Virus record (IMG/VR): IMGVR_UViG_3300031760_000013
Coordinates: 2,458-66,457 of that record
Direction: 5' to 3' (one strand)
Length of the DNA stretch: 64,000 nucleotides
Source: a virus
Lineage: Duplodnaviria > Heunggongvirae > Uroviricota > Caudoviricetes
Positions within the stretch are counted from its first letter, which is position 1; each line of letters opens with the position of its first letter. The translations under genes were made by a program, and so were the position numbers. Positions 9,567 to 62,680 of this stretch are shown here, piece by piece. Below the pieces are notes generated by a model, which was not told where the DNA came from, did not search any database, and was given only the letters and a program-made list of their open reading frames with translations.

Positions 9567-12500
9567 TTAAAACAGCTGTCTGTACGATTTCATCCTGAAA
9601 TATCCGTTTTTGTCTCGCTCGTACGAAGTACAGTATATTATGTCGCCCTTACCTACTTTGGCATGCTCATAATCCCTGTTGTAAATCGTAAACCGGCTTT
9701 CAATACCGCTACCGATTGACTTCGTTGTGATTGAGTAACCGAACTGCTTGCCGTCTTTCTTTCTTCTGACTGGGTAGATGTCTGTAATGTAGAGCTTACG
9801 TCTGTCCTCTTCTCTACCAGACACATAACCTACATACCCCATCACGTCGTAGAAATTCCTGACTTTCAACAGATCACTCAGATCTTCCAGGTGTGCAGCT
9901 TTGATCGCGTCCTCGATCTCTCTCAGGATTTCTCGTGTGTCGAGCTGCGTATAATTCTTAGATTCCTTTCCAGATTTCGTGAAATCGACGGAATGGCGTT
10001 TGACAATTTCCTCGATATGTGTATTCTTGACTTTCTCTTTGGAGATTTGTTTCGCCTCGCCCTTCTTGAACGTGTCGTAGAACATATCCGTTATGCGAAG
10101 AAGCTCCCGCTGGTTCCCAAAATCGGAGAAGAAATCCAGCTTAATTAAGATATCAAGCTGCCGTGTGTTCATGTGCGTCTTCTGATCTATATCAAACAAC
10201 AGATCGCAAAATCTATTGTACTGGTTATTGTGTGCGAGCTCGTAAAGCTCTTCGGCGATCGCGGCGTTCATAAATTTTACAGATGTGAGACCTTTCGCAA
10301 TAATGTTTTTGTCTTCATCGTAGAAGTACTTGTCTCTGGAAAGCCCCCACTTCGGGTTTGTTACGGCAATTCCGACCTTATGTGCGTATTTCGTAATCTC
10401 TGCCGTCTTGTCGGTATTGTCTTGGAATATATTCAGTGCAGCAGTTAAGAACTGTAGCGGGTGATAGTACCTCAAGTACCCACAAATATACCCAATACAT
10501 GAGTAGCTGTCTGAATGGTTCCACGAAAAGGCGTACGCTGATGCGTCAAGGATAACCTGCAAGAACGGTTTAATAACTTTCTCGCATTCTTCCTCTGACA
10601 TCCCATAGTTCTCAATACAGTAAGCTACGAACCGCTTTTCGATTTCTGGCAACAACTGCTCGGTGCCTTTCTTTTTCGCGATACCTCTGCGGACAAGGTC
10701 GCTCTCAGCGGCTGAATAGCCACAGAACTTTACAAGGAACTGCATTATGGTTTCCTGCATAGCGATTCTCCCGGCTTCTGGGGCAAGAAAATCATTCAGC
10801 GCATCAAAACCATTATCGTAAAATTCCCCTCTCGCAACACTGTCTCGGAAACTTGCACATGCCGGACGGATCAAGCCGTTACCGAACGACATCCATTTGA
10901 TCATTGAGAAATTAGGGATTCTTGATCTGGCTTTTTCAAGTGTCTTTTCCGACATGAATTCTCTTAGGTATGCCTGAGCACTATTAGATTCCCATTGGAA
11001 TATCAGCGTTGTGTCTTTTCGAATGCTGTCCCATACGGCCATATCTTCTAGGTCTGTGTTGTCCGGTGTTAACCTCTCAATGCCAAGCATTTTGCACGTA
11101 TCGTTAATCACACCTATATTGTCGAGCCCTAGGATATCAAGCTTCACGTACATCTGATCATCAAGTTCCTTCATGTTTATCATGGAAACCGGATAATCTG
11201 ATGTTGATATACTGCAAAGCCCCATCATTTCATCTATTGGAAGGTCGCTGATCAACACCCCACTAGGATGTGTACCGATTGATACAATCGTACCGTCAAC
11301 TATATCGGCATACCGAAATACTTCCGGCCACTTCTTTCGTGCATTTTCAACGTCCCGATCAACTTCTTTGCTGATTTCGTTTGAAAGATCTAGGTAGTTG
11401 ATTTTCTCATCGTCTTTATATAAAGCTCTGCATACATCACGCACTGCGCCCTTCGTCGCGATTGTGTTGAATGTGATGATTTCTGCAGAGTTGATTGTCG
11501 GAAGCCCCATTTTATCCTTCAACAAGAACTCTTTTATCCTGTCTCGATCCGCACCTGCGTAGTCTGTGTCTATATCGGCGTTTGTTACTCGAGCGGGGTT
11601 CATAAATCTGAAGAAGTTTAGATTAAACTTGAGGCTATCCATCTGCGTTATACCAAGAATGTAGGCAATCATACTTCCAGAGACAGAGCCACGGCTGTAC
11701 CCGCACTGAATACCGTTTTTCTTTTCCCATTCACGTAAGTAAGTCTGCATCAGCATAAAGTCGATTGACTTTGTGGCCTTGTACACTTCAAACTCTTCAT
11801 CGATTACTTTGTCGAGCTCTTCTCGTGTGTGATTTTTAAGCGCATATGGGTGTTTTACCAATGCATCATCAATCTTTTTGCGGAAAGTTTGCTCTGGGTT
11901 GTCATAAATGTGCGGATATTTCGTGCCACAATCCAGTTTGAATTCTTCGACCATATCGGCAAGTACATTCGTGTTGCGAATTGCCTCCATGTACACATTT
12001 TCTTCTAACGAACCCTGTTTTTTATAAGCTTCTACCAACTCATCGTATGTTTTGAACTTTAAATCCCAGAGTTCCTCGCCGTCGAAGTGTATGTTTTTGG
12101 AAAGCTGTAGTATGCTGCGCCCTTTTTCGTGTTCTTCATTCAATACGTGTGTATCTGTACCGGCGATTAATGGGATTGATGTACTCTGACTAAGCGCTGT
12201 AAGCTTCTCATTGTATACGATCTGTTTCTCATCCATGTGATGACCAATTTCAAAGAAACACCTGCCCCTGTTTCGAAGCATAAAATCCAAAAATCGCTCA
12301 CGTACTTCTTCGTCGCCTTTACCGAAAACACCGCCGACACAAGCGGTTGTTATTATAATGTTATCGGTCGTAGCAAACAGTTCATCGAATGAAATTCTCG
12401 GTACATAATAAAAGTGGTTGTCTTTTCTGTTGAAACTTTGTGTTATTAGCTTATTAAGCTCACGGAACCCATCATAATTTCTGGCGATAAGGCAACAGTG

Positions 12501-23418: not shown

Positions 23419-24372
23419 TTATTCCATGTGTACAATTTTCCAACGTTCGTAATCTCTTTTAAAATCCTCAACAATTTGTCGTTTTTTGGAATCGATCGTG
23501 TTTCGACCAGAGCCAAGCTTATAAACTTTCCCGTCTATATACTCTGCGGCAGCATCTTCAAAACATGGCGCTTTACCCATTGCCTCAGAAATATAAGTCC
23601 TATAAAAAAGCCCGGACAGCCACACTCTGTAGTAACTTAACGATTGCAGTTCGCCCATTTCCTTGAACGCCATGCGTTTTCTCTTTGAAAACTCAACGCG
23701 AAAAGCCCTGATTGTTGGTATAGCTTTAACACCACTTAGTAGAAACGTCCTATCAAAACGCTGTACTACTATACGTTTTGAATAGTTTGGGTGTGCATAC
23801 ACAAAAGAATCAAGTGTCGATGCAGCGGAAAAGTCCGCAAAAGCCTCCTTATATATTCTGTATGATTTGTTGTCAAAACAAACAGCCATGTTTTTCAAGT
23901 CAACATCTGTGCGTCTGACTAATACCGTTTTTTCTTCTTTTACACCAGAGAATGCCAGCCAATAGTAACATCTGTATATACAATCCACAGTTTGCTCATC
24001 GGATGGCTTAAAGTAAAAATCTAAATATTTCTTCAGCTCTTCTGGGGTTGAGACAGTTAAGCGACGCATCTCGTCTGACATCTCATTGCTGTACATAATA
24101 CTTTCTGCGCATGTTTTTACACCAATATTCTTTTCGCACCAGCGGAGATAATCTTTCAGTGTGCTTAACACGCCCATTGTTGATCTAGACCTCAATGTGT
24201 AAGCACTATCCACCACCGCGCTCAGCTCCTGTTTGCTCATTTCGTAAAGGTCTCGTCCGGCTGCATCTTCATATTTCCCAAACGACTCAAACAAACGATT
24301 GAGATTCCTTGCGGTCATTTTGTTGTTTGTTTTCTGTTCGATATACCTACTCTTGAGTTGAATATTGTACAT
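23419..24372 (-). CDS. hypothetical protein, paralog of 50187..51137 (N-terminal region resembles a recombinase core-binding/SAM-like DNA-binding domain)
   Basis: 317 aa. Same length and parallel motifs as the 316-aa protein at 50187..51137 (LKDYLRWCEKNIG versus VNSYLKWCDRNRV). Strong AGGAGG RBS. Confidence 0.45.
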   Translation of the reverse strand: MYNIQLKSRYIEQKTNNKMTARNLNRLFESFGKYEDAAGRDLYEMSKQELSAVVDSAYTLRSRSTMGVLSTLKDYLRWCEKNIGVKTCAESIMYSNEMSDEMRRLTVSTPEELKKYLDFYFKPSDEQTVDCIYRCYYWLAFSGVKEEKTVLVRRTDVDLKNMAVCFDNKSYRIYKEAFADFSAASTLDSFVYAHPNYSKRIVVQRFDRTFLLSGVKAIPTIRAFRVEFSKRKRMAFKEMGELQSLSYYRVWLSGLFYRTYISEAMGKAPCFEDAAAEYIDGKVYKLGSGRNTIDSKKRQIVEDFKRDYERWKIVHME

Positions 24373-26998: not shown

Positions 26999-27808
26999 TC
27001 AAACCACTAACTGCAGGCTTTCCCCTATATCGCAATTAATATAATTATTTTTCCCACCAAGGTTTAACCCAAGATATGCATTTTCAATCTCCTCTTGTGT
27101 TAATCCAATATAGTCTAGCGTAATTACAAGAGACGAATGCCCAAGCATTTTTGATAGTAACATCAATTTCCGTGGGTCATTGTTGCACATTGCCATTTGA
27201 TGATAAGCAAAAGTTTTTCGTAAAGTGTGTGTACTCATATGAATTCCAAGGTGTAGGTCTTTGTTAATACCCTTTAATAGATATTCGAAAGAATTCCTAT
27301 GCATTGGTTTCCCAGCATCTTTCCCATGGTTCGACTCTGATTGGAACATATAATCGTCCAGTTTAACGCCATCCGAGTGTTTTAGAAATAATGTCACTGC
27401 CTCAATAACAGCGGAATTAATTGTAATATAACGATTCTTTTTATGTTTTCTGGTATTTTTCGTCTTCTTTTCAACAATTGGGAACGTTCTTTTAAAGGTG
27501 AAATCGTCGTTGATTAAATCGCAGAAACGCAATACGCGTAAATCGCTTATACGTAAACCGAAATTAATCCCAACTATAAATATCATATTATCCCTATATC
27601 GATTATTGGCTATCAGATATTGGGATATCTTCTCTATATCTTCAATGCGTTTAATTGGTTCGGCAGCATGCTCATCTACAACATCCCGTTCAACTTTTGT
27701 TTCTGCTTCAGAAATAAGACCGGCGACAGAATTGTTACTCGCCCGCCACAAATCGGACGGAATGACCTTTTCTTTCTTCTTAAAATCAGCATAAATAATT
27801 TCCGCCAT
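26999..27808 (-). CDS. tyrosine recombinase (phage integrase family)
   Basis: 269 aa. HTLRKTFAYH (HxxR) and LGHSSLVITLDYIG (catalytic Tyr context) are near the C-terminus. Confidence 0.7.
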   Translation of the reverse strand: MAEIIYADFKKKEKVIPSDLWRASNNSVAGLISEAETKVERDVVDEHAAEPIKRIEDIEKISQYLIANNRYRDNMIFIVGINFGLRISDLRVLRFCDLINDDFTFKRTFPIVEKKTKNTRKHKKNRYITINSAVIEAVTLFLKHSDGVKLDDYMFQSESNHGKDAGKPMHRNSFEYLLKGINKDLHLGIHMSTHTLRKTFAYHQMAMCNNDPRKLMLLSKMLGHSSLVITLDYIGLTQEEIENAYLGLNLGGKNNYINCDIGESLQLVV

Positions 27809-38798: not shown

Positions 38799-38874
38799 TG
38801 GTACCGCTGGATGGAGTTGAACCATCGTCTTTGGCTTATAAGGCCACTGCTTCTAACCATTGAGCTACAGCGGC
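38799..38874 (-). tRNA. tRNA (anticodon loop CUUAUAA, so anticodon UAU, Ile-type), CCA encoded
   Basis: Minus-strand sequence GCCGCUGUAGCUCAAUGGUUAGAAGCAGUGGCCUUAUAAGCCAAAGACGAUGGUUCAACUCCAUCCAGCGGUACCA folds as a cloverleaf: a 7-bp acceptor stem with one G-U, a GG D-loop, T-arm GAUGG/UUCAACU/CCAUC and 3' CCA. The D-stem has one irregularity. Confidence 0.55.
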
Positions 38875-39300: not shown

Positions 39301-39609
39301 TTACCCACAAAGTAATTCACCCCACAAACTGTTAAATTCATCATCACTGATATCTGGTGGCGGTGAGCACGCTAACTCACTGAACATTTCGTCTGTCCAT
39401 CTGTAATTCCACATATCTACGCTTTCCCCGGAAGATACAAGATATTGGCCATTTAAATAATCAGAGATTTGAACTACTTTTCCTCTAAGCTTGCACATAT
39501 CATCAGTCGCACTATTACTAGCGCTATGGTCTTCCATGCTGTAATGCATACCTTCTATCAAGTCTTCTCTTACAATGACTCTATCGCCTATTTGGTATTT
39601 CATATTCAC
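39301..39609 (-). CDS. small protein, GDRV-barrel/WTDEM family
   Basis: 102 aa; GDRVIVREDL, RWTDEMF and C-terminal DDEFNSLWGEL. Confidence 0.45.
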   Translation of the reverse strand: MNMKYQIGDRVIVREDLIEGMHYSMEDHSASNSATDDMCKLRGKVVQISDYLNGQYLVSSGESVDMWNYRWTDEMFSELACSPPPDISDDEFNSLWGELLCG

Positions 39610-39812: not shown

Positions 39813-40313
39813 TCATTCCGTCAGAAATTCAAAGAATTCCTCATCTGAGAACACATCTTTAATCTCGGAATCGATAAGCCGGATACTGTCCCATGGTACA
39901 TTCCAACCATGTTTAACATCGCATTCTCCACCGCAAGAATGCCCGTTGATGTTTCTATCCCATCTTACGCCAATCCATTCCCCGCGGTCTTCGCTTTCAA
40001 GATAAACAATTGTTCCGCGGTCTCCGGCCCGTAAGTGTCCACCATCTAATTTAATTAAGCCAGAATACTCTACTCTGTCCCCAACTCTGAAGTCGTCGCA
40101 TATTCCCCTAAGTGAGTCTGGATGGAGGTACCAGCCGTGCTCGTCGTTACACCGGCCATCACATGTATGCCCTCGATGTATCGCCATGTCGAATTCGACT
40201 CCGATTGAGCCGCCACCAAAGGATACACTTACGACTGTTCCTCGATATCCCATTTGGATATCGCCAATTTTTACATCGCTGATGTATTCTACACGATCCC
40301 CAAGATCAAACAT
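39813..40313 (-). CDS. tandem-duplicated GDRV/HGW-domain protein with C-terminal SDEEFFEFL tail
   Basis: 166 aa. Two internal repeats, each GDRVEY...G.RGT.V...GV.....GH.C.G.C...HGW..P.DS. Confidence 0.45.
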   Translation of the reverse strand: MFDLGDRVEYISDVKIGDIQMGYRGTVVSVSFGGGSIGVEFDMAIHRGHTCDGRCNDEHGWYLHPDSLRGICDDFRVGDRVEYSGLIKLDGGHLRAGDRGTIVYLESEDRGEWIGVRWDRNINGHSCGGECDVKHGWNVPWDSIRLIDSEIKDVFSDEEFFEFLTE

Positions 40314-40321
40314 AATTTACC

Positions 40322-40639
40322 TCACAAACCTAAGAACAAGGTAAACTCATCGTCAGAGCATGCATCAAATTCTTCGGATTCCTGCAGTTTTTCCACGTTA
40401 TATTTGTTCGTATTCCAACCATGGCCTACTTCGCATGCCCCATCATTGGAATGCCCGTTCGGCAGTGCCTCATCCCATGCAATGTAAACCCATGTAATAT
40501 CTTCTGGGCAATCTTGCAAAACCGTCCCGGTCATACCGTACTTTAAATGACCGTTATCTTCGGCACGTTCGCTTACAAATATTATCCGGTCGCCCTTACG
40601 TAAAACTTGGCGTTCTCTATCATATTTACACATCTTCAT
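40322..40639 (-). CDS. GDRV/HGW-domain protein with C-terminal DDEFTLFLGL tail
   Basis: 105 aa; KGDRIIFV...GHSNDGACEVGHGWN; single copy of the repeat found in 39813..40313. Confidence 0.45.
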   Translation of the reverse strand: MKMCKYDRERQVLRKGDRIIFVSERAEDNGHLKYGMTGTVLQDCPEDITWVYIAWDEALPNGHSNDGACEVGHGWNTNKYNVEKLQESEEFDACSDDEFTLFLGL

Positions 40640-40741: not shown

Positions 40742-40966
40742 TCACAAACAGAACTGTGGATTACACCCTTCACCCTGATGTGGGCAACTCTTACAGGTAG
40801 AACCTTGGGTTATATCATTTACCTGTGAAGCAAAACCTTCTCTCAATTCTTCTTCTATGTTTTCCCGGTTCTCGTCAGTTCTTAAATCAACCACTGTGAT
40901 ACCAAGCATTTTCCAAATCTCTTCAAAAGTCCCTTCAACATAGACACCCTTAATTTTTGCTTTCAT
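40742..40966 (-). CDS. small protein with C-terminal Cys cluster
   Basis: 74 aa; CKSCPHQGEGCNPQFC; 9 nt downstream of the RT gene. Confidence 0.35.
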   Translation of the reverse strand: MKAKIKGVYVEGTFEEIWKMLGITVVDLRTDENRENIEEELREGFASQVNDITQGSTCKSCPHQGEGCNPQFCL

Positions 40967-40974
40967 ATTAACCC

Positions 40975-42129
40975 CTATCCAGCAAGATCCTCTTTAATCA
41001 GTTTCTTGATGCTCCCGCAACCAAGCTTCTCACCAAGATAACCAACCAGCTCGTCAATTTTTCTGCCTTCAACCATCTTGTAATAATTATAGAGCCCGTT
41101 CATAACTTGGATATCCTCCAAATCCCACGGATTCCCGTTCTGCCTATCTTTCACATAGTTTGTGAGCATCGCCTGAAATCTGCGCTTAGTTTTATGCCCA
41201 ATAGTTATTTCGTTCTGCCCGTTAAGACAGCATCCAAGCAGAAAGTTATGTCCAGAAGAAGAACCGTACCTTGTCTTTGCGGTATTGAGCTGGAACGGCG
41301 CATTAAATGTTGCAAGTGAGCTGATAATTTCCTGCTCGATTTTTCTGAAGTCGAAATCATACCGAGACGAAATGATAAAGTCATCGGCATATCTCGTATA
41401 CACGAAGCGCTGCTTATCGAAATCCCTGAGTTCCTTCGATAGCTTATAGTCGATTGGAATCATCATGATGTTGGTTATCAGCGGAGAGATCGGAGTGCCC
41501 TGCGGAAGCCCGCCATTCAGAATTGCTAACTCAAGAGCAGATTCCAAAGCACTTCTTCCTCTTTCGGTCTTAACCACTTCAGAAAACGGGTATACCATAG
41601 AGAACATCTGCATGATAAATTCCAGAGTTGTGCTACCAAAGAAGTCATGCAGGTCATATTTACAAAACCACTTGCTCTCATTTGACTGATGACGCTTCAC
41701 CGCATCAAGCGTAGACCGTTTCTTGATATACGCAAAAGCCGATGTGTGATACAGCGCCTTACAATCATTCTCAAAAATACCTTTCAGTGTTCTAAGTGCG
41801 CTCATCAAGTCGTCTTCCGGCGCATTAATCTCACGAAGGCCGCCAGATTTTTTAGGAATATAAAACTTATAGTATGATTCCTGCCTTGGCTTAGATTTAA
41901 TTCTAGCCACTACATCTGATGTGTTAAAAGCTTCGAGCTTGAGGATGATGCGTCCAATGCTTATACCAAGTTTTCTTTCTACCCTATCAGACACATACTC
42001 CATTTCATAAGTACGTGTGTTTGTAAGATTCTCATTGATTACGCCTGGCGTAGTCGATGTCTGGAAGAGAAACTCCTCCAAAGTCATCTGGTGATACGTC
42101 GGCGGCATCTTGACAACGACATATACCAT
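40975..42129 (-). CDS. reverse transcriptase (retron-type, no maturase/endonuclease domains)
   Basis: 384 aa. RT motifs YIPKKSGGLREI (motifs 1-2), LPQGTPISPLITNIMM (motif 4, QGxxxSP) and YTRYADDFII (motif 5, YADD). GGGAGG RBS. Confidence 0.85.
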   Translation of the reverse strand: MVYVVVKMPPTYHQMTLEEFLFQTSTTPGVINENLTNTRTYEMEYVSDRVERKLGISIGRIILKLEAFNTSDVVARIKSKPRQESYYKFYIPKKSGGLREINAPEDDLMSALRTLKGIFENDCKALYHTSAFAYIKKRSTLDAVKRHQSNESKWFCKYDLHDFFGSTTLEFIMQMFSMVYPFSEVVKTERGRSALESALELAILNGGLPQGTPISPLITNIMMIPIDYKLSKELRDFDKQRFVYTRYADDFIISSRYDFDFRKIEQEIISSLATFNAPFQLNTAKTRYGSSSGHNFLLGCCLNGQNEITIGHKTKRRFQAMLTNYVKDRQNGNPWDLEDIQVMNGLYNYYKMVEGRKIDELVGYLGEKLGCGSIKKLIKEDLAG

Positions 42130-42157
42130 CTTATGTTCCTCCCTATTAAACTGTTAT

Positions 42158-42480
42158 ATAACTGTAATCTACGTGTGTGTGCCTGCAGGAACCGGGACCG
42201 TCTTCCTGGATCTGGAGTTGTAGTCTGCTGGCGAGCTCGCCATTACTGAGTAGCTTGTCATCGAGAAAGGAGCCTTGTTTTCCAAGATTTCGTATTTCTG
42301 ATGGCTAAGATTTTGCTACTAGGTCTTGATAAGACTCGATGACTGTGACAGCACGAGCAGCTGCTGGGTCATCGCTGCGGCGGAAGGCGTGCCCAGCCAT
42401 CGTTCACGCCTCTGCTCAAATCGTTACTTCCGCTTACAGCAAGAAGCACCATATTACTATGGTCATTGCATTACAGTTAT
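42158..42480 (-). ncRNA. candidate retron msr/msd-like non-coding RNA upstream of the RT
   Basis: A 323-nt non-coding region bounded by 11-bp inverted repeats ataactgtaat (42158-42168) and attacagttat (42470-42480). The downstream repeat lies 28 nt from the RT start, the a1/a2 geometry expected of a retron. The interior has a perfect palindrome tggcgagctcgcca and GC-rich pseudoknot-like stems. Confidence 0.35.
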
Positions 42481-42497
42481 GAAATTAGATTTCTAAA

Positions 42498-42752
42498 TTA
42501 TTCGTTTTCCAAAATCTCAAGCAGATGTTTCCCGTGATCGGTGATTTTCATATGCTTGAGCATAGATTCGCAGTGCTCGCTCTTGAAGAATTCTTTGATT
42601 TCCTTTTTGGAATAACCCCATTCATCGCGAGTTATCCGCGAATCCTTTCCCCTATTGCAAAGGTCGCGGTAATCGTCAGCTGCCTTCTGCAAAATTGCCA
42701 TGGCAAGCTGAGCTGCACCGCGACCCCGCAACACCTCTAACGATTCTGGCAT
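42498..42752 (-). CDS. hypothetical protein
   Basis: 84 aa; between the E1-like gene and the RT leader. Confidence 0.35.
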   Translation of the reverse strand: MPESLEVLRGRGAAQLAMAILQKAADDYRDLCNRGKDSRITRDEWGYSKKEIKEFFKSEHCESMLKHMKITDHGKHLLEILENE

Positions 42753-43423
42753 CAGAATACGTCCAGAATCCCACTAAAGCCATCGATCTGGCCGAACTTC
42801 CAAATACCTTCACCCTTAACAAACTTTATGTAATTGTTCACACACATCGCACAGATGAGGCGGACAGTTGTCACAACTCCGAGTGTAATTCCGCACGCGC
42901 TCACTGGAGTCTCGTTTTTTGCCTCTTCGTGTGAAAACTGCATAGAGTTCAGAAGGTTCTGGCGTGACTGGTAATCACTCCAGTCTGCCCCATACATCTG
43001 CGCTCCCGTTAGAGCCGTTCTCACGTCGAACACCGCTTTTAAGAAAGGGTGATCCATGTGCTGCTCAACAAATTTCCTGCGCAGTTCTATATTGTCCGGG
43101 CAAAGGAACACATACCCCGATAGCATTTTCCCCTGCCACCCTTCCGGTTTGATCTTGATCGAATCTTTTGCTTCCGGATTAATTTCCAGAATAAGATCCC
43201 GCAGCGCCTCGACCTTAAGCCTTCCGATATCCTGCTGTCTGAACATCTGGTTCACGATGTTGTGCTTTTCGACCTTGTCGAAATCATAAAGCGTCATCTT
43301 TGTAATGCCGCACCGAGCAAGATTTTCCGCGATTGTCGAGCCGACTGACCCGCAGCCGATTATATGAATCATCGCGTCATCTTTTTCCGGCTGGAAGAAT
43401 TCATAGCTTTTACTGAGATCCAT
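42752..43423 (-). CDS. ThiF/MoeB-family E1-like adenylyltransferase (minimal adenylation domain)
   Basis: 223 aa. HIIGCGSVGSTIAENLARCGITKMTLYDFDKVEKHNIVNQMF reproduces the E1 Rossmann GxGxxG plus the D.D.VE..N(L)xRQ nucleotide-binding signature. Confidence 0.6.
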   Translation of the reverse strand: MDLSKSYEFFQPEKDDAMIHIIGCGSVGSTIAENLARCGITKMTLYDFDKVEKHNIVNQMFRQQDIGRLKVEALRDLILEINPEAKDSIKIKPEGWQGKMLSGYVFLCPDNIELRRKFVEQHMDHPFLKAVFDVRTALTGAQMYGADWSDYQSRQNLLNSMQFSHEEAKNETPVSACGITLGVVTTVRLICAMCVNNYIKFVKGEGIWKFGQIDGFSGILDVF

Positions 43424-43424
43424 A

Positions 43425-43916
43425 TTACCCTCCGATCATTTCATTTGCTTCACGCAAACCATTACCAAGAGCTTCGAGCTCTTCCTCCGTAAACCTCTGC
43501 ACACAATCCCTGCTTTCGGAAAGCATATCCATCACCGTGCATTCTTCTTCCTCGACCTCGAAAGGATCGTACGGTTCAAATGGCTCTTCCTCTTCGTCAT
43601 CTTCCCAGGCGTCGTTTTCATCCGCCCAATCACGAACTTCGCCTTTCCAGTAATCAAAATCCGCCGGACGCCATTCGCCATAATATTCGTCATACTCATA
43701 GTAATCATAACCACTATTGTCACGATACCTATCAAGTATATTGAACAAATCTTGCCACGTGTTATCTCTGGCAAGATCGACAAGACTTTCATCGATAATT
43801 TCGTCACGCGAATCTGCAGAGATTACATCCTCAAGAAGATAGCAGCCGACATCGTCGCAGAACTGATTCAGGTCATAGAAATCATTAACGTCATCGATAA
43901 ATGTAGAACGATTCAT
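43425..43916 (-). CDS. highly acidic protein ending in Gly-Gly (candidate ubiquitin-like/sulfur-carrier-like partner of the E1-like enzyme)
   Basis: 163 aa with very Asp/Glu/Tyr-rich repeats (DYYEYDEYYGEW, EDDEEEEPFEPYDPFEVEEEE). C-terminus ...NEMIGG followed by the stop codon. AGGAGG RBS. Beta-grasp fold not verifiable by eye. Confidence 0.4.
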   Translation of the reverse strand: MNRSTFIDDVNDFYDLNQFCDDVGCYLLEDVISADSRDEIIDESLVDLARDNTWQDLFNILDRYRDNSGYDYYEYDEYYGEWRPADFDYWKGEVRDWADENDAWEDDEEEEPFEPYDPFEVEEEECTVMDMLSESRDCVQRFTEEELEALGNGLREANEMIGG

Positions 43917-43928
43917 ATTTTCCTCCTA

Positions 43929-44933
43929 TCAATAATAGAACCCGTCACTATACCCGAACGGGCCATACGGGTCGTCCATTTCATCGGCATAGATACCGGA
44001 TGCCCTGTATGGCGATCTGTCGGATTTTTTCTTCTCTTTTTTCTCGGAACGTTTGAATTTCTTCCCGAGATGTTTTTTCTTTGACTCGGGGTACTCCTTC
44101 TTTTCCTGCTTGTCCACTTGTGCCACCTGTACCTGCTTAGGTTGTTCAACCTTTGCGATCGGGGCCACAGGCGCAGGTTTTACCTGTTCTGGTTTCTGGG
44201 TATAATTATTTCTATATACGGACTGCAATTGTTCTTGATTTAAGTTGTACGCAGACCCGTTGTAATTCCCGTACTGCTGGTATGCCGGTTTATTTTCCGT
44301 GATCATTCCCTTTGCTTCACGCAAGAACTTTTCAACTCCGCATTCATCTTCGATCACGTTAACCGTCACGTCGGAAGTATCAAACATGACATTCTTTTTC
44401 ATGTCATAGATCTTATACATACATTCCCCGCGCTTGTTATAGATCATGAATATGTAAAACATCGTATCATCGAGTTGGCCGAGAAGCTTTTCATACAAAT
44501 CATTATCAGTTACCGATGGCGTAACTCCCATATTTACATGGGAATGCCCCTGCATTCTGATATTGTTGAATACCTCATCTTCCTGCTTCATCAACCATTC
44601 CTGGTACTTAATCTGATCTGTGTTGACATTCGCCGCGGAAACTACCTGCGGGTATACCAGAATGTCTGTGATATAATACTCGTCTTTCGTCTCATCTTCG
44701 CCACGATAAGCAAGCCCATGCCAACCAACTTCTTTATCACATTCCCTGATCAATGACGTCATTTTCAGCCATGCAATTTCGGTGAAATAAACCGTACATG
44801 GACGTTTTGTCGCCATCAATGCTCGATGAAAATCGATCTTGCCATCCATCAGCTTTGCAGATTTCAGGATACTTTCAAATTCCTGTCTCCACTGGCTGAT
44901 ATTATCCTCTGTTATCTTAATTGCTTTCGCCAT
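43929..44933 (-). CDS. JAMM/MPN+ family metalloprotease (JAB deubiquitinase-like) with Lys-rich C-terminal tail
   Basis: 334 aa. Exact JAMM motif HSHVNMGVTPSVTD (HxHx7Sx2D) with an upstream Glu (EVGWHG). C-terminal third is low-complexity and Lys/Pro-rich. Confidence 0.65.
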   Translation of the reverse strand: MAKAIKITEDNISQWRQEFESILKSAKLMDGKIDFHRALMATKRPCTVYFTEIAWLKMTSLIRECDKEVGWHGLAYRGEDETKDEYYITDILVYPQVVSAANVNTDQIKYQEWLMKQEDEVFNNIRMQGHSHVNMGVTPSVTDNDLYEKLLGQLDDTMFYIFMIYNKRGECMYKIYDMKKNVMFDTSDVTVNVIEDECGVEKFLREAKGMITENKPAYQQYGNYNGSAYNLNQEQLQSVYRNNYTQKPEQVKPAPVAPIAKVEQPKQVQVAQVDKQEKKEYPESKKKHLGKKFKRSEKKEKKKSDRSPYRASGIYADEMDDPYGPFGYSDGFYY

Positions 44934-46404
44934 TTGCAGTTGCCTCCCCTTCCTGCAGTTTCAGATATTCGATTGCTTCCTTCGGTTTTACTACGCTGCC
45001 ATCCGGCAGTTCAAAGCATTTATTGTTCGTGCTGTAATCGCTTATGCCATAAATCCTCTTGAAGAATTCACGCATAACGGTACCGTCCCCAAAGTTCAAA
45101 CTCTTGCATGATGCGATGCACTGTTCAATCGCGCCGATATAATCCCTATTTCTAAGGAACATATTAATCTGACGTTCGTAATTCCCGAGACAACGATATG
45201 CGTCAATGTGAGTATTCGGCATATAATCTCGGAATTCCGAGCCATACTCATACCCACCCATCGCACTGACATTACCTTCAAGACGGAAATGATATGCTGC
45301 ACAGAATCTGATCTTTATTGTCTGATCAATAAACACTGCACGCATCAGCTTTTCCATGTCTTCTTCCGGAATAATGTTGTTACACCCACGATCGTTCGGG
45401 CGATACATGAGACTGCGCTTATTCCCGATCATGCTCTCAGCAGCATCTTCGTCGAAATACTGGAGATAATCTTTCACAACGAATTCCATCACTGTATCAT
45501 CTACCTTCATTAGTGACAGTTTCCTATTGTTGATAAAGTACTGCATGATCTCAGATTCTTCATCGCCGCTTGCAAGCTTTGTTTCAATCCCCAGAAGAAC
45601 GGTTTCCTGGTCTCTTCTCTTACGCAGATATTCCCCAATTTCTTCGTTCAATCTTTCGATCGTCCTATCGATCTCACCGATATTATTAGCGACTTCCGTC
45701 CTGCGGAGACGCTCATATTTCAACTCAAACCCTCCAAGCATTCCCTTAATGCCTGCGGTTCTGAAATCGTAATGAGATGCGATCTGATCAACACACTCGA
45801 GATATCTGTCCGGCGTTTTCTCTCTGAGAGAATGAATCAGCGACATTTCCTCATCGGATACACCATTTTTCGGATCAAAATACCAAGGTAAGAACGCAAA
45901 TACACCACACTGCAGATAATGCATTCTGCGTGTGTCCATATTATCCGTGAAGATGTAAACGCTGCGTCGCTCAACATTCACATAACACAGAACTTTGAAA
46001 ACTTTCCGGTAAAAATCCGTGACCTTTGTTACGCGATGCCATCCCGCACACATGCTCTCGAGGTTGTTTTCGATCGCGTGGAATACCTTTTCCGACGCTT
46101 CGTCTGAACCAGTCGAGATGTTCTTAATAAACAGGATACCATCACCCATGCGATTAACATGAACACACTGATCGTTCGCAATAGTTTCCTCTGTCTTTGA
46201 CCGAACATCGCTTGGACGCATTGACTGTGAATAATACGAAAAAGTGAGGTTGTCATCCTCTCCCATTCTTGGCGCAACTAATGCACGCAATGTAGATATG
46301 AACGTGCTATCACCATTCACCATATCGCCCCAGATTTTCCCTCTGAAATACTCTTCCGCGAACGGTGTGGTCAGAGACGTTCCACGAATTAAGTCTCTAA
46401 ACAC
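44917..46404 (-). CDS. hypothetical protein (495 aa)
   Basis: Long ORF with no motif I can name. Confidence 0.45.
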   Translation of the reverse strand: MFRDLIRGTSLTTPFAEEYFRGKIWGDMVNGDSTFISTLRALVAPRMGEDDNLTFSYYSQSMRPSDVRSKTEETIANDQCVHVNRMGDGILFIKNISTGSDEASEKVFHAIENNLESMCAGWHRVTKVTDFYRKVFKVLCYVNVERRSVYIFTDNMDTRRMHYLQCGVFAFLPWYFDPKNGVSDEEMSLIHSLREKTPDRYLECVDQIASHYDFRTAGIKGMLGGFELKYERLRRTEVANNIGEIDRTIERLNEEIGEYLRKRRDQETVLLGIETKLASGDEESEIMQYFINNRKLSLMKVDDTVMEFVVKDYLQYFDEDAAESMIGNKRSLMYRPNDRGCNNIIPEEDMEKLMRAVFIDQTIKIRFCAAYHFRLEGNVSAMGGYEYGSEFRDYMPNTHIDAYRCLGNYERQINMFLRNRDYIGAIEQCIASCKSLNFGDGTVMREFFKRIYGISDYSTNNKCFELPDGSVVKPKEAIEYLKLQEGEATANGESN

Positions 46405-46617
46405 TTTTAAATCCTCCCTGATTTAATTTCCTTTTAGAGCCGATATCCGGAGTCGAACCGGACGGTATTTACCGTTCCTCACATCGGCATATAAAAACAA
46501 GTGGCGCGAAAGAAATCCCTTCATTATAGCGTGCCATCAAGCATGCCGGATTCCCAAGCGCCACTTGGAGTTACGATGTGTTATGATTTTCAAAGGCTCC
46601 AGTCGGAGCCTTATGTA

Positions 46618-46845
46618 TTATGCGTTATCCAGCTTCTGGACGTTGTACAGGAAGCCCTTTTCTGTGATGCCGAGCTGGCTGAATGTTTTATCCAGATCGC
46701 CGGGGCCGAGGGTTGCGCCGTCAAGAGTGGACATGCCGTGAGTATAATCAATGTCGTTCTGTTCGAAAACCTGACGCGGAGTTGCATCATCTTCAACGAT
46801 AACCGGAACACGCTTCACATTGTTACCTACAGTGATCTTAACCAT
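46618..46845 (-). CDS. hypothetical protein
   Basis: 76 aa from Met MVKITVG... with RBS AAAGGAGA; the longer track ORF (to 46914) lacks an RBS. Confidence 0.4.
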   Translation of the reverse strand: MVKITVGNNVKRVPVIVEDDATPRQVFEQNDIDYTHGMSTLDGATLGPGDLDKTFSQLGITEKGFLYNVQKLDNA

Positions 46846-46939
46846 TTTTATTTTCTCCTTTAATTCAATAAATATTTTTTTGTTTGAGATTTTGGGAAAC
46901 TGCGGGGCTGCCATTAATTTGACAGCCCCAAACTCAACA

Positions 46940-47341
46940 TCACTGAGTTACAGTAATGTTGCTGAGGATTGCGGCCTCTTCAGCCTCGATTTCCTCGAGA
47001 ATTCCGGGGATCTTTTCCTCGATCTTACCGAGGAGCAGGACAGCGGGACCGAACTTGTCAGCTACATACCCCTTGATATTTTCGGTTTCCACGCCATCAA
47101 GAGTAGTTGTGAGACATGCAAGACCTGCACCGTCACGGGTTTCCTTGCCGAACTCAACACCAGCGGAACGGATGCTACCAGCACCATTCGTCACACCGAC
47201 GCAGAAAATCGGTTCCTTGCCATCCTCACCGCCGAGAAGTGTGAGGGCTTTGGGGCGATACTTCTTTACCTTCTTGTAATCCGCCAGCTTAACGCTGGAA
47301 GTTACAACGACTGCATCCCCTGCGATCACGATTTTTGCCAT
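46940..47341 (-). CDS. hypothetical protein, likely highly expressed
   Basis: 133 aa; strong RBS AGGGAGAAAGAGG; GC-richer codon usage than the rest of the window. Confidence 0.45.
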   Translation of the reverse strand: MAKIVIAGDAVVVTSSVKLADYKKVKKYRPKALTLLGGEDGKEPIFCVGVTNGAGSIRSAGVEFGKETRDGAGLACLTTTLDGVETENIKGYVADKFGPAVLLLGKIEEKIPGILEEIEAEEAAILSNITVTQ

Positions 47342-49942: not shown

Positions 49943-50200
49943 ATGATATTGTTATTTAAAGACCAGACTTATTTAGCAATCACATCAACCAAGTGGATTA
50001 ATAAAGAAGAGGCTGACATAATCAGCCTCAACGATTTACAGAAATCCAAAGAATTCCACGGGAAATCAGTGGAGTCTGCCGGTATTTGTTTTTACGATTC
50101 CAGTTATTATCTCGTTGTGGAATTTACAAAAACCCTCGAGATTCATAAATGGTGCGGTAATTGCATCGTGAAAACCATTTGGAGAATTATTCCAGATTGA
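49943..50200 (+). CDS. hypothetical protein
   Basis: 85 aa plus-strand ORF with AAGGAG RBS; isolated plus-strand gene in a minus-strand block. Confidence 0.35.
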   Translation: MILLFKDQTYLAITSTKWINKEEADIISLNDLQKSKEFHGKSVESAGICFYDSSYYLVVEFTKTLEIHKWCGNCIVKTIWRIIPD

Positions 50201-51137
50201 AATAGCGTTTATAGGCGCGGTAAGACCACAAGGCTTTACCCGCCGTTTTTGTTCCTTTAAAAACCTCAGTAACTTTACTGGCGTTTTCTTTTGAAAATAC
50301 ATCGAATCCCGCCTGTTCTAATAAGAACAGAGCGTGGAGCCTACCAGATTCCCACACGTTTTTAAAGACAAGCCTATTAGGATTCCCAAGCTCCTGATAG
50401 GCTTCAGCGATTTTGTTTAATGCTGAATTCAATTGCGTTGGTGTATAAGATTCCCCGAACCTGTCGGATTTTGGTGTTGCGAACTTCTTCAAAAACTGTT
50501 TGCAATTCGGGTCTTTTACCACGTTAAAAACCGCCGTCCGATTTTCTCTTTGAGCGATTTTGCAATCTGCATACTCCGTAAGGATTTTAGAAATTTCCGG
50601 AGAATACCATGATGCTATAACATTCCCGTCAACATCATATATTTTCTTGTTAGCAAGATCAACTTGAGAATCCAGCATATTAAATATACTGTTTTTCCCA
50701 ACACCAATCCACGCAAGCGCAAATATCGGTGGCTCTACATACCCGTTATCAATTTCCCGAACCTTTTTAATTTCTGTACACAGTGACGCCGGGTCTTTAA
50801 TGTAGATTTCCCCTGCTTTCGAGAATACATCTGAATTCGGATCAATTGCCGCGAGAATCCAATCTGTCACGTGATCAAAAACCCTATTTCTATCACACCA
50901 TTTCAGATATGAATTCACTATTGAACGGACCGTGTATATGGTTCCCAGAGATTGCATATCTAATTTCCCAGCAACAGATTCCGCTTCCGCTTTATCCATT
51001 TCCGCAATATCCTTACCAAAATCCCGTTCAAGCTCTTCTGTAATTCCAAAGATTTTGAACGCAGTATTCCTGTTGGATTTGGTTGCAATCATTTCCATGA
51101 TAAAGCTATCTTTAATTTCGGCATTATACATTTCCAA
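50187..51137 (-). CDS. hypothetical protein, paralog of 23419..24372
   Basis: 316 aa; shared length and motifs with 23419..24372. Confidence 0.45.
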   Translation of the reverse strand: MEMYNAEIKDSFIMEMIATKSNRNTAFKIFGITEELERDFGKDIAEMDKAEAESVAGKLDMQSLGTIYTVRSIVNSYLKWCDRNRVFDHVTDWILAAIDPNSDVFSKAGEIYIKDPASLCTEIKKVREIDNGYVEPPIFALAWIGVGKNSIFNMLDSQVDLANKKIYDVDGNVIASWYSPEISKILTEYADCKIAQRENRTAVFNVVKDPNCKQFLKKFATPKSDRFGESYTPTQLNSALNKIAEAYQELGNPNRLVFKNVWESGRLHALFLLEQAGFDVFSKENASKVTEVFKGTKTAGKALWSYRAYKRYFNLE

Positions 51138-61642: not shown

Positions 61643-62680
61643 TTGTGCATAATGGGACGAAAGACAAAAATGACTAGAATCACTAGTCCAGAAAAGATGG
61701 CTTTGATAAACAAAAACAATATCAGGCTCAAAGATGAATTTTTGATGTATCTGAAATCCATCCAACGAAGCCCTGGCACGATCACCGGATACGATAGTGA
61801 CCTGACAATTCTGTTTACATACATACTGGATAATTATGACAACAAAGATTTCCAGCAGCTAAGCAAACGAGACCTGATCGGATTTCAAAACTGGATGGTA
61901 ACGAATGGAAATTCAAGCTCACGAATCAGGAGAGTAAAAGCTGCTATCAGCTCCTTGTCGAATTACTGCGAGAACATATTGGCTGACGACGACCCTGATT
62001 TCGACGGGTTCAGATCTATCGTGAGAAAGATTGAGAACCCTCCTCTTCAGCCGGTCAGAGAAAAGACTGTGCTCGAAGATGATGAGCTTGGGCTTTTGCT
62101 TGACAAGCTTATAGAAAAGAAGCAATACAAGAAAGCTTGTTGCCTTGCACTTGCTATGTATAGCGGTAGACGGAAAGCGGAGCTTCCACGATTTCGCGTT
62201 GAGGATTTTAGCGATGAGCGGCTTGTATGCGATGGTGCACTATATAAAAGCTCACCGATTCAAACCAAAGGGAGGGCAGGTGGAAAGTACCTCGCTTGCT
62301 ATACTCTGGCAAAGAAGTTTAGCCCCTATCTTGATTTATGGATGAAAGACCGAGAAGAGCAAGGGATAGAGAGTGAATGGCTCTTCCCTTCTGCAACTGA
62401 TACTAGCAAACCGATGGGTATATCAACGCTGAATAGTTGGGCAAAGACTTTCTCTGCTATCCTGCAGAATGATTTCTATTGGCATGCCATGAGGCACTAC
62501 TACACAACGTGCCTGACCAGAGCAGGTATCCCAGACGGTGTGATTCAAAGTATTGTTGGTTGGGATTCTGCAGACATGGTCAAGGTCTATAAAGATATTG
62601 ATGCTGATGAAGAGATAGGAATGTATTTTAAAGATGGTGATATCTCCGTTCCGGATAGGAAAGGATTCGGAGATATATAG
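61643..62680 (+). CDS. tyrosine recombinase (phage integrase family)
   Basis: 345 aa. N-terminal core-binding-type domain; C-terminal WHAMRHYYTT (HxxR) and IVGWDSADMVKVY (catalytic Tyr). Confidence 0.7.
   Translation: MCIMGRKTKMTRITSPEKMALINKNNIRLKDEFLMYLKSIQRSPGTITGYDSDLTILFTYILDNYDNKDFQQLSKRDLIGFQNWMVTNGNSSSRIRRVKAAISSLSNYCENILADDDPDFDGFRSIVRKIENPPLQPVREKTVLEDDELGLLLDKLIEKKQYKKACCLALAMYSGRRKAELPRFRVEDFSDERLVCDGALYKSSPIQTKGRAGGKYLACYTLAKKFSPYLDLWMKDREEQGIESEWLFPSATDTSKPMGISTLNSWAKTFSAILQNDFYWHAMRHYYTTCLTRAGIPDGVIQSIVGWDSADMVKVYKDIDADEEIGMYFKDGDISVPDRKGFGDI

Follow-up and report, generated by a model that had tools for sequence, protein, structure and literature searches.

A retron-type reverse transcriptase co-inherited with a ubiquitin-like gene cassette in a phage lineage

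Do a retron and a set of ubiquitin-like conjugation genes that lie side by side in a phage genome belong to one system, or are they merely neighbours? The question is raised by a stretch of 64,000 nucleotides from the Caudoviricetes record IMGVR_UViG_3300031760_000013 (positions 2,458 to 66,457 of that record), which we refer to as the window; all coordinates given here are positions within it, and all elements of the block in question are located on its minus strand. The original prediction, made from the DNA sequence of the window, had placed a retron-type reverse transcriptase (RT) and a structured non-coding RNA (ncRNA) in one array with a ubiquitin-like or sulfur-carrier cassette. Reading from 44933 down to 40742, this array consists of a JAMM metallopeptidase, a 163-aa protein, a ThiF/E1-like activating enzyme, an 84-aa open reading frame (ORF), a gap with the ncRNA, the RT and a 74-aa ORF, exactly in the order, on the strand and at the coordinates described, with spacings of 12, 1, -1 and 8 nt from one coding gene to the next. 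The unit that is conserved among relatives has other limits than 40742-44933. It comprises p133, the ubiquitin-like protein (Ubl) p75, p495, the JAMM peptidase, the E1, the ncRNA and the RT and spans positions 40975 to 47341, the genes for p75, p495 and p133 lying further upstream than the array had been thought to extend.

Linkage of the block across related loci

Related loci were gathered from three sides: from the RT in two scans of viral contigs (one with the window RT, one with the most divergent RT), from p495 on contigs of genomes and metagenome-assembled genomes (MAGs) with a closer alignment, and from the E1, taking the most divergent E1 first. Profile hidden Markov models (HMMs) of six proteins were run on all ORFs of 266 loci, and the fetched loci hold 177 distinct combinations of E1 and RT sequences. 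Wherever these sequences were distinct and enough flanking DNA was available, p133, p75, p495, the JAMM peptidase, the E1 and the RT were all present (150/150 loci), at RT identities to the window of 35-72%. Among the first 186 loci, 108 of the 110 distinct six-gene loci passed a combined order-and-strand test, and when positions alone were checked in the unfiltered list of loci, no order violation came up. The only apparent exceptions are a truncated contig (locus L023) and a locus with a 5.8-kb insertion whose upstream genes fell outside the fetched range (L071). Starting from the E1, both the RT and the full cassette were recovered in 75/75 loci, and the search of MAG contigs from the p495 side returned the same linkage. 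The p495 family amounts to 2,196 clusters at 50% identity, of which the nearest members were inspected, from a list of the 150 closest. The linkage of the RT to an E1/JAMM cassette, claimed from a single genome together with the proposal to look for it in others, is thus borne out in the relatives, whichever of these proteins served as the starting point.

The block is a fixed island amid variable surroundings. When the two ORFs on either side of it were clustered, the most widespread downstream ORF family occurred in at most 23/163 loci and the most widespread upstream family in at most 31/151. Within 19 kb in five divergent loci, hardly any ORFs besides the six genes have a counterpart in the 64-kb window. 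Small gene size does not account for this turnover of the flanks, because the 75-aa and 133-aa proteins of the block were recovered everywhere. Clustering of ORFs in 163 loci found no conserved small effector gene downstream of the RT, and a consensus scan of the block's coding strand brought up no terminator-like site. Defence cargo is usually variable and inserted between conserved flanks; the block displays the opposite pattern.

Judging by gene content and by its relatives, the element carrying the block is a phage or phage-plasmid of gut Clostridia and not a bacterial defence island. The window encodes a PolC-like DNA polymerase, NrdD, a DnaB helicase, a primase and RtcB as well as ERF, a radical SAM enzyme and an SPFH protein. 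Two proteins of the Phage_integrase family and two with an MrpR-type recombinase core-binding domain (26999-27808, 61643-62680, 23419-24372 and 50187-51137) are also encoded, and these four recombinase-like proteins suggest a temperate or plasmid-like (phage-plasmid) lifestyle or a role in multimer resolution. The related contigs are either viral, with lengths of 85-150 kb, or phage contigs binned in MAGs of Clostridia (Oscillospiraceae, Ruminococcus, Acutalibacteraceae and Eubacteriales). A megablast comparison of 12 kb with deposited phage and plasmid collections gave no match at the DNA level. On one Eubacteriales MAG contig (L091; JAUNSG010000001.1, 358,930 bp), the whole block is located near the contig end (14036-35538), which may represent a prophage that has integrated, a mis-join or a relative of larger size; the contig far exceeds the viral ones of 85-150 kb. 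The window harbours a tRNA-Ile(TAT) gene at 38799-38874, and in relatives up to 13 tRNA genes are scattered over this early region on either side of the block.

The reverse transcriptase and its non-coding RNA

The RT (40975-42129, 384 aa) contains a YADD motif and is preceded by an N-terminal extension of 75 aa. It matches Pfam RVT_1 with E = 1.7e-18, and its best PADLOC match is the retron model RT_II-A (E = 6.5e-46), followed by III-A, XIII and I-A. In NCBIfam, retron St85 scores 166.3 bits compared with 92 bits for group II introns and at most 43 bits for defence-associated RTs (DRTs); over NCBIfam and PADLOC, retron models reach 155-166 bits versus at most 92 bits for group II and DRT models. 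None of the cutoffs of the curated retron families is reached (St85, 166.3 against 235; Ec67, 98.6 against 450; TIR retron, 95 against 600). Of regions X and Y, the residues most conserved in retrons, H147 and G299, are invariant, but the motifs read DAVKRH and NLG, where the retron motifs are given as NAXXH for region X and VTG for region Y (PMC7736814). Comparison with the available family models provides good support for placing the enzyme in the retron RT lineage, as originally predicted. Residues 1-75 (41905-42129) form a conserved extension, MxYITVKQPPxYHQMTLEEFLFQ...NTRTYE, that precedes the RT domain and is covered by no family match; a partner might dock here. The C-terminus of the RT is unconserved among relatives, so the RT itself is unlikely to be what is conjugated.

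The non-coding gap upstream of the RT gene (42130-42497, 368 nt) contains a predicted retron ncRNA (msr-msd) of 323 nt (42158-42480). It is bounded by an 11-nt perfect inverted repeat, a1 (ATAACTGTAAT, 42480-42470) and a2 (ATTACAGTTAT, 42168-42158), with 28 nt between the end of a2 and the RT start codon. A candidate branching G directly follows a1 at 42469, and two msr hairpins are found at 42463-42448 and 42447-42427. At the same place in relatives, a1 and a2 covary (ACTGTAAC/GTTACAGT, TATGCAAT/ATTGCATA, TTAGTTCAAA/TTTGAACTAA, AACCCAAT/ATTGGGTT and TAAAACAGT/ACTGTTTTA). As the search demanded perfect pairing of the repeats and a G after a1, both features are partly built into the 51 selected sequences: all of them have the demanded G after a1, and all of them have a G immediately before a2, which was not demanded.

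Two independent checks bear on this point. Qualifying repeats of at least 8 nt occur in 58/79 real upstream regions compared with 19/395 shuffled ones, and the G after a1 keeps a constant spacing to conserved msr features on which the search did not rely. These features follow the order hairpin 1, which is variable in sequence, GCTT, hairpin 2 and AGTAAC..TTG. Hairpin 2 displays compensatory changes in 6/6 pairs, and the covariation score over both hairpins is 0.54 versus 0.26 in shuffles, a value of 0.54 being reached by none of 500 shuffles. No Rfam family was assigned to the ncRNA at gathering or E-value thresholds, and in place of a conserved promoter the region upstream of a1 is merely A/T-rich with no clear -35/-10 elements. 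From the covarying repeats and hairpins, the presence of a retron-style ncRNA in the gap, predicted to be an msr-msd, is well supported, in agreement with the structured RNA originally proposed for this site. The distance from the E1 stop codon to a1 is 7-60 nt in 46/82 distinct loci. From the end of the E1 gene, the RT start is a median of 408 nt away, a length close to that of the ncRNA.

The ubiquitin-like cassette and its non-core neighbours

According to its structural model, p75 (46618-46845), and not the 163-aa GG-protein, is the real Ubl of the cassette. The AlphaFold2 model of p75 has a mean predicted local distance difference test (pLDDT) value of 90.4 and a beta-grasp fold with bb-a-bb-b topology. 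Foldseek comparison with the PDB retrieved ubiquitin, NEDD8 and SUMO as best matches (probability 1.0, TM 0.62-0.69, 18-25% identity), and neither ThiS nor MoaD was among the 50 best. The flexible C-terminal tail ends in K-x-D-N-A in the window and in most homologues, some of which add 1-4 residues. In the most distant lineages, the Ubl ends in DGGC or DGGRQ (L085:4295-4534 and L086:4649-4897). Terminal Gly-Gly and Asn-Ala thus appear to be interchangeable in the p75 family, and the pattern of tails reads as that of a Ubl with an activated tail that would in some lineages be trimmed first.

A role as ubiquitin-like component had initially been assigned to the acidic 163-aa protein (43425-43916), which ends in MIGG. 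Since the GG end and the gene position are both unconserved, this candidate was rejected. Most related loci lack the gene or have it at another place, the closest homologue ends in MELVAE, and the terminal GG is kept in no homologue, so that the protein is a non-core, lineage-specific insert. Its family has a conserved N-terminal part of about 100 residues, unrelated C-termini and shifting locations, often 3-5 kb downstream of the RT, with paralogues for example at L015:13250-13792 and L018:12832-13374.

The 213-nt spacer between the p75 and p495 genes (46405-46617) is highly structured, with a folding energy of z = -4.5 that is matched by none of 200 shuffles. It contains a perfect palindromic hairpin just past the p75 stop codon (AAGGCTCCGACTGGAGCCTT, 46612-46593) and a degenerate remnant of a tRNA-Leu(TAA), composed of an acceptor-like stem and the T-arm CCGGTTCGACTCCGG. 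Neither ARAGORN nor Rfam returned anything in this spacer of the window. An intact tRNA-Leu(TAA) is located between the Ubl gene and p495 in 11 of 14 relatives scanned with ARAGORN (e.g. L001:3590-3673, L003:2980-3066 and L014:3584-3668).

The block opens with p133 (46940-47341), a protein of 133 aa whose gene leads the order in all complete related loci; it had no match in Pfam, NCBIfam or a PDB profile search. Searched singly, the sequences of p133, p75, p495 and the GG-protein gave nothing useful in Pfam, NCBIfam, PHROGs or PDB, and profiles of p495, p133 and p75 compared with PDB sequences yielded no more than coiled-coil noise or a marginal match to ubiquitin. For p495 (44917-46404), the model (pLDDT 87.6) consists of an N-terminal alpha/beta domain, a coiled coil of about 50 residues (residues 226-279) and a C-terminal alpha/beta domain. 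Cys405 is its sole invariant cysteine and, together with the likewise invariant His399 and Asn437, stands in the context P-N-x-H-I...C-x-G. The C-terminal domain gave weak matches to E2/RWD-like folds, BilB among them. The candidate assignment as an E2/RWD-like domain is tentative because a Foldseek search of p495 against the PDB returned no significant match and an hhalign comparison of its profile with UBE2D2 gave no match.

Across 30 homologues of the 334-aa JAMM/JAB metallopeptidase (43929-44933), E68, H130-S-H132, S140 and D143 never vary. Its profile matches RPN11 in the PDB (E = 0.0035), and the protein matches the PADLOC JAB model (E = 0.0023). Its C-terminal third (43929-44300) is a long K/E/Q-rich low-complexity linker followed by an acidic/aromatic end, ...DDPYGPFGYSDGFYY. 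Similar ends are found in many homologues, e.g. DDLDDPYGPFGYME and DDNPYSAFGYA, and resemble the acidic C-terminal tips of single-stranded DNA-binding (SSB) proteins, which recruit partner proteins. The E1 (42752-43423) is a minimal enzyme of the ThiF/MoeB type with 223 aa and a single adenylation domain. Residues 17-205 match Pfam ThiF (E = 5e-23), ThiF is also the best NCBIfam match, and among defence models the best matches, at about 1e-17, are to the E1 portion of Cap2-type E1-E2 proteins. The nucleotide-binding and catalytic motifs of the E1 are preserved, and invariant in it are GxGxxG, R37, D47/D49, N55/N58/Q59, K70, D110 and C177.

Other genes at the locus do not belong to the core. 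Of 106 loci screened for the 84-aa ORF (phrog_7024, 42498-42752), which is situated between the E1 gene and the ncRNA, tblastn detected it in only about 9; the ORF represents an insertion because a1 starts 7-60 nt past the E1 stop codon in so many loci. For the Cys-rich 74-aa ORF (40742-40966), no homologue was found downstream of the RT in other loci. Both ORFs, originally counted as parts of the module, are lineage-specific insertions that are unconserved in relatives. Xrn1-type SH3-like domains (PF18129; 1.7e-14 and 6e-5) occur in a row of small paralogous proteins that are encoded immediately downstream of the block, at 39813-40313, 40322-40639 and 39301-39609, and similar ORFs occur at varying places in relatives. 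The block itself is split in some loci by inserts of 2-6 kb, which lie at L071:2154-7935, L095:10700-16646, L247:about 9600-11983 and L028:4580-6944.

Proposed coupling of the retron and the cassette

Given the conserved linkage, we lean modestly towards the view that the retron and the Ubl cassette are functionally coupled as one module. The more far-reaching proposal, that the block represents a new type of retron whose partner or effector is a complete Ubl/E1/E2-like/JAMM cascade and which, as a core module, serves the virus and not bacterial defence, is put forward tentatively. Going by the chemistry of these families, the E1 would adenylate the flexible Ubl C-terminus (...DNA here and ...DGG in distant relatives), and the Ubl would pass via Cys177 of the E1 and then Cys405 in the E2-like domain of p495 to target lysines. 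The JAMM peptidase, whose active site is intact, may trim the short C-terminal extensions of some homologues and reverse conjugation. As expected from retron architecture, the RT would copy the msd part of the ncRNA into multicopy single-stranded DNA (msDNA), primed from the G after a1 (G42469). It is their strict co-inheritance that suggests a joint action of RT-msDNA and the Ubl ligase, for which two options can be envisaged. The retron may act as a sensor or scaffold, which is the usual retron logic, and thereby gate conjugation. Alternatively, the ligase may control the RT, in analogy to type II CBASS (cyclic-oligonucleotide-based antiphage signalling system), in which Cap2 and Cap3 regulate the nucleotidyltransferase (CD-NTase). 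Because the block is fixed in a phage family amid variable flanks, a role that benefits the phage, be it counter-defence, host takeover or competition with other phages, is favoured over optional cargo.

Several observations weigh against coupling. Insertions of 1-6 kb separate the E1 gene from the retron in L008, L071, L082, L095 and L247, L028 carries an insertion between the JAMM and E1 genes, and many relatives have a tRNA gene inside the cassette; thus, a tight operon structure is not obligatory. Moreover, the loci found all come from a single broad phage lineage, in which vertical co-inheritance of two adjacent but independent modules might suffice to keep them together. Stand-alone msr-msd-RT cassettes do exist (PMC7736814), and Bil operons function without an RT (PMC10557695). 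The main alternative that emerges from these points is a phage Bil-like conjugation system next to a stand-alone retron, two independent neighbours within a conserved accessory region, co-inherited by adjacency only. It is a serious possibility, which we nevertheless doubt: co-occurrence in a fixed order persists in 150/150 loci over the whole range of RT identities while the flanking families turn over, the ncRNA follows the E1 stop codon so closely in 46/82 loci that there is no space for a promoter outside the E1 gene, and ORF clustering left the retron without any other conserved neighbour able to act as effector.

That the Ubl, E1 and JAMM genes form a sulfur-carrier system like ThiS/MoaD/TtuB, which might thiolate the many phage tRNAs encoded nearby, and not a protein-conjugation system, with an unrelated RT beside it, appears quite unlikely. 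JAMM enzymes do serve such systems, as in the pairs Mec+/CysO and QbsD/QbsE, the E1 is of the minimal ThiF/MoeB type with ThiF as its best NCBIfam match, and the region is rich in tRNA genes, with tRNA-Leu inside the cassette in relatives. However, the Ubl tail is ...DNA and not GG in most members, p75 is nearest to ubiquitin, NEDD8 and SUMO with ThiS and MoaD outside the 50 best matches, no ThiG-, MoaE- or TtuA-type partner is found among the block proteins, and the sole invariant cysteine of p495 occupies an E2-like position. Very unlikely indeed is a bacterial defence retron with the JAMM peptidase, the 163-aa GG-protein (as Ubl or sulfur carrier) and the E1 as accessories and with the 84-aa and 74-aa ORFs included. 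Such a unit is intimated by the contiguous, co-directional genes in the window and by the GG end of the 163-aa protein, yet no homologue has this GG, the gene is absent or elsewhere in most loci, the two small ORFs are unconserved and the element has the features of a phage. That the RT belongs to another class (group II intron, diversity-generating retroelement (DGR) or Abi/DRT) and that the upstream structure is merely a 5′ untranslated region is barely credible. Scores under every curated retron family cutoff, the motifs DAVKRH/NLG instead of NAXXH/VTG and an RNA without Rfam match would fit this explanation, whereas the higher scores of retron models (155-166 bits versus at most 92 for group II/DRT), the covarying a1/a2 repeats and the G before a2 in 51/51 sequences, although not demanded, speak against it. 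Rfam found no intron RNA; a dedicated search for DGR template/variable repeats was not part of the analysis.

Relation to known systems and significance

The locus shares with retrons (types I-XIII of Mestre et al. 2020; nearest by HMM is type II-A/retron St85 = Sen2) an ncRNA just upstream of the RT, a1/a2 repeats, the G after a1, msr hairpins and YADD, and it has adjacent conserved non-RT genes as do tripartite retrons. In contrast, no retron type has Ubl, E2-like, JAMM and E1 neighbours, and ThiF, ubiquitin and JAB are not mentioned in the retron classification paper (PMC7736814). Further differences are the length of the ncRNA, which is about 270-360 nt, RT scores under the family cutoffs and the variant X/Y motifs. 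Whereas retrons are scattered in bacterial defence islands, the module described here is fixed across a whole phage family.

The cassette half resembles the bacterial ISG15-like ubiquitination systems BilABCD (types I and II), which have the same gene order of Ubl, E2-like protein, JAMM and E1 (PMC10557695) and likewise combine a beta-grasp Ubl with a JAB/JAMM peptidase. The BilABCD E1 has the domains IAD-AAD-CYS, whereas the E1 in the window is a 223-aa single adenylation domain. Instead of the universally conserved C-terminal Gly followed by 0-9 residues that characterizes the BilABCD Ubl, p75 ends in Ala, with D-G-G in the most distant members. The BilABCD E2 has a catalytic Cys with an adjacent His. 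Moreover, the candidate E2-like domain in the window sits within a 495-aa multidomain protein, p133 is an extra conserved component, and the system is phage-borne and followed by a retron; no match to Bil proteins at the sequence level was found in PADLOC. RTs and retrons are mentioned neither in the Bil paper (PMC10557695) nor in the Bub papers.

Type II CBASS provides the best matches to the E1 and the JAMM peptidase in the defence libraries (Cap2 at about 1e-17 and Cap3/JAB at 2e-3). As its E1/E2/JAB set regulates a nucleic-acid-type polymerase, the CD-NTase, it offers a possible analogy for the RT. In CBASS, E1 and E2 are fused, whereas they are separate genes here and the Ubl is free-standing, and no CD-NTase or CBASS effector was detected among the nine block and adjacent proteins scanned with Pfam, NCBIfam and PADLOC. 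ThiS/MoaD-ThiF/MoeB pairs and PRTRC have in common with the cassette a minimal ThiF-type E1, a small beta-grasp protein and a JAMM enzyme; the GG terminus and the partner synthase of the ThiS/MoaD pairs are both missing here. A PRTRC cassette was considered and rejected, as PRTRC ThiF (TIGR03736) scored 25.8 bits against a cutoff of 144.75 and neither ParB nor any other PRTRC model was found.

No phage retron linked to a Ubl system is described in the literature searched or in curated family libraries, consistent with the original impression of a new combination; one paper that seemed a candidate for such a pairing turned out to be about DGRs. The parts of the block are of known kinds, and what is new is their combination, the location in phages, the Ala-ended Ubl and the minimal E1.

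In the conflict between phages and bacteria, both retrons and the ubiquitin-like systems of bacteria have only recently been recognized and have so far been studied as separate defences encoded by the host. A module uniting the two would broaden both fields. Even if the two halves of the block were independent, a Bil-like system and a retron that are each fixed in phages would be unusual, and the compact Ubl/E1/E2-like/JAMM set with its unusual C-terminal Ala would be useful for biochemistry. If the proposed coupling is true, one would have to ask how making msDNA benefits a virus. Such coupling would also add a new class of partners to the retrons, provide prokaryotic Ubl signalling with a nucleic-acid input or output and constitute the first mechanistic link between reverse-transcribed DNA and tagging by ubiquitin-like proteins.

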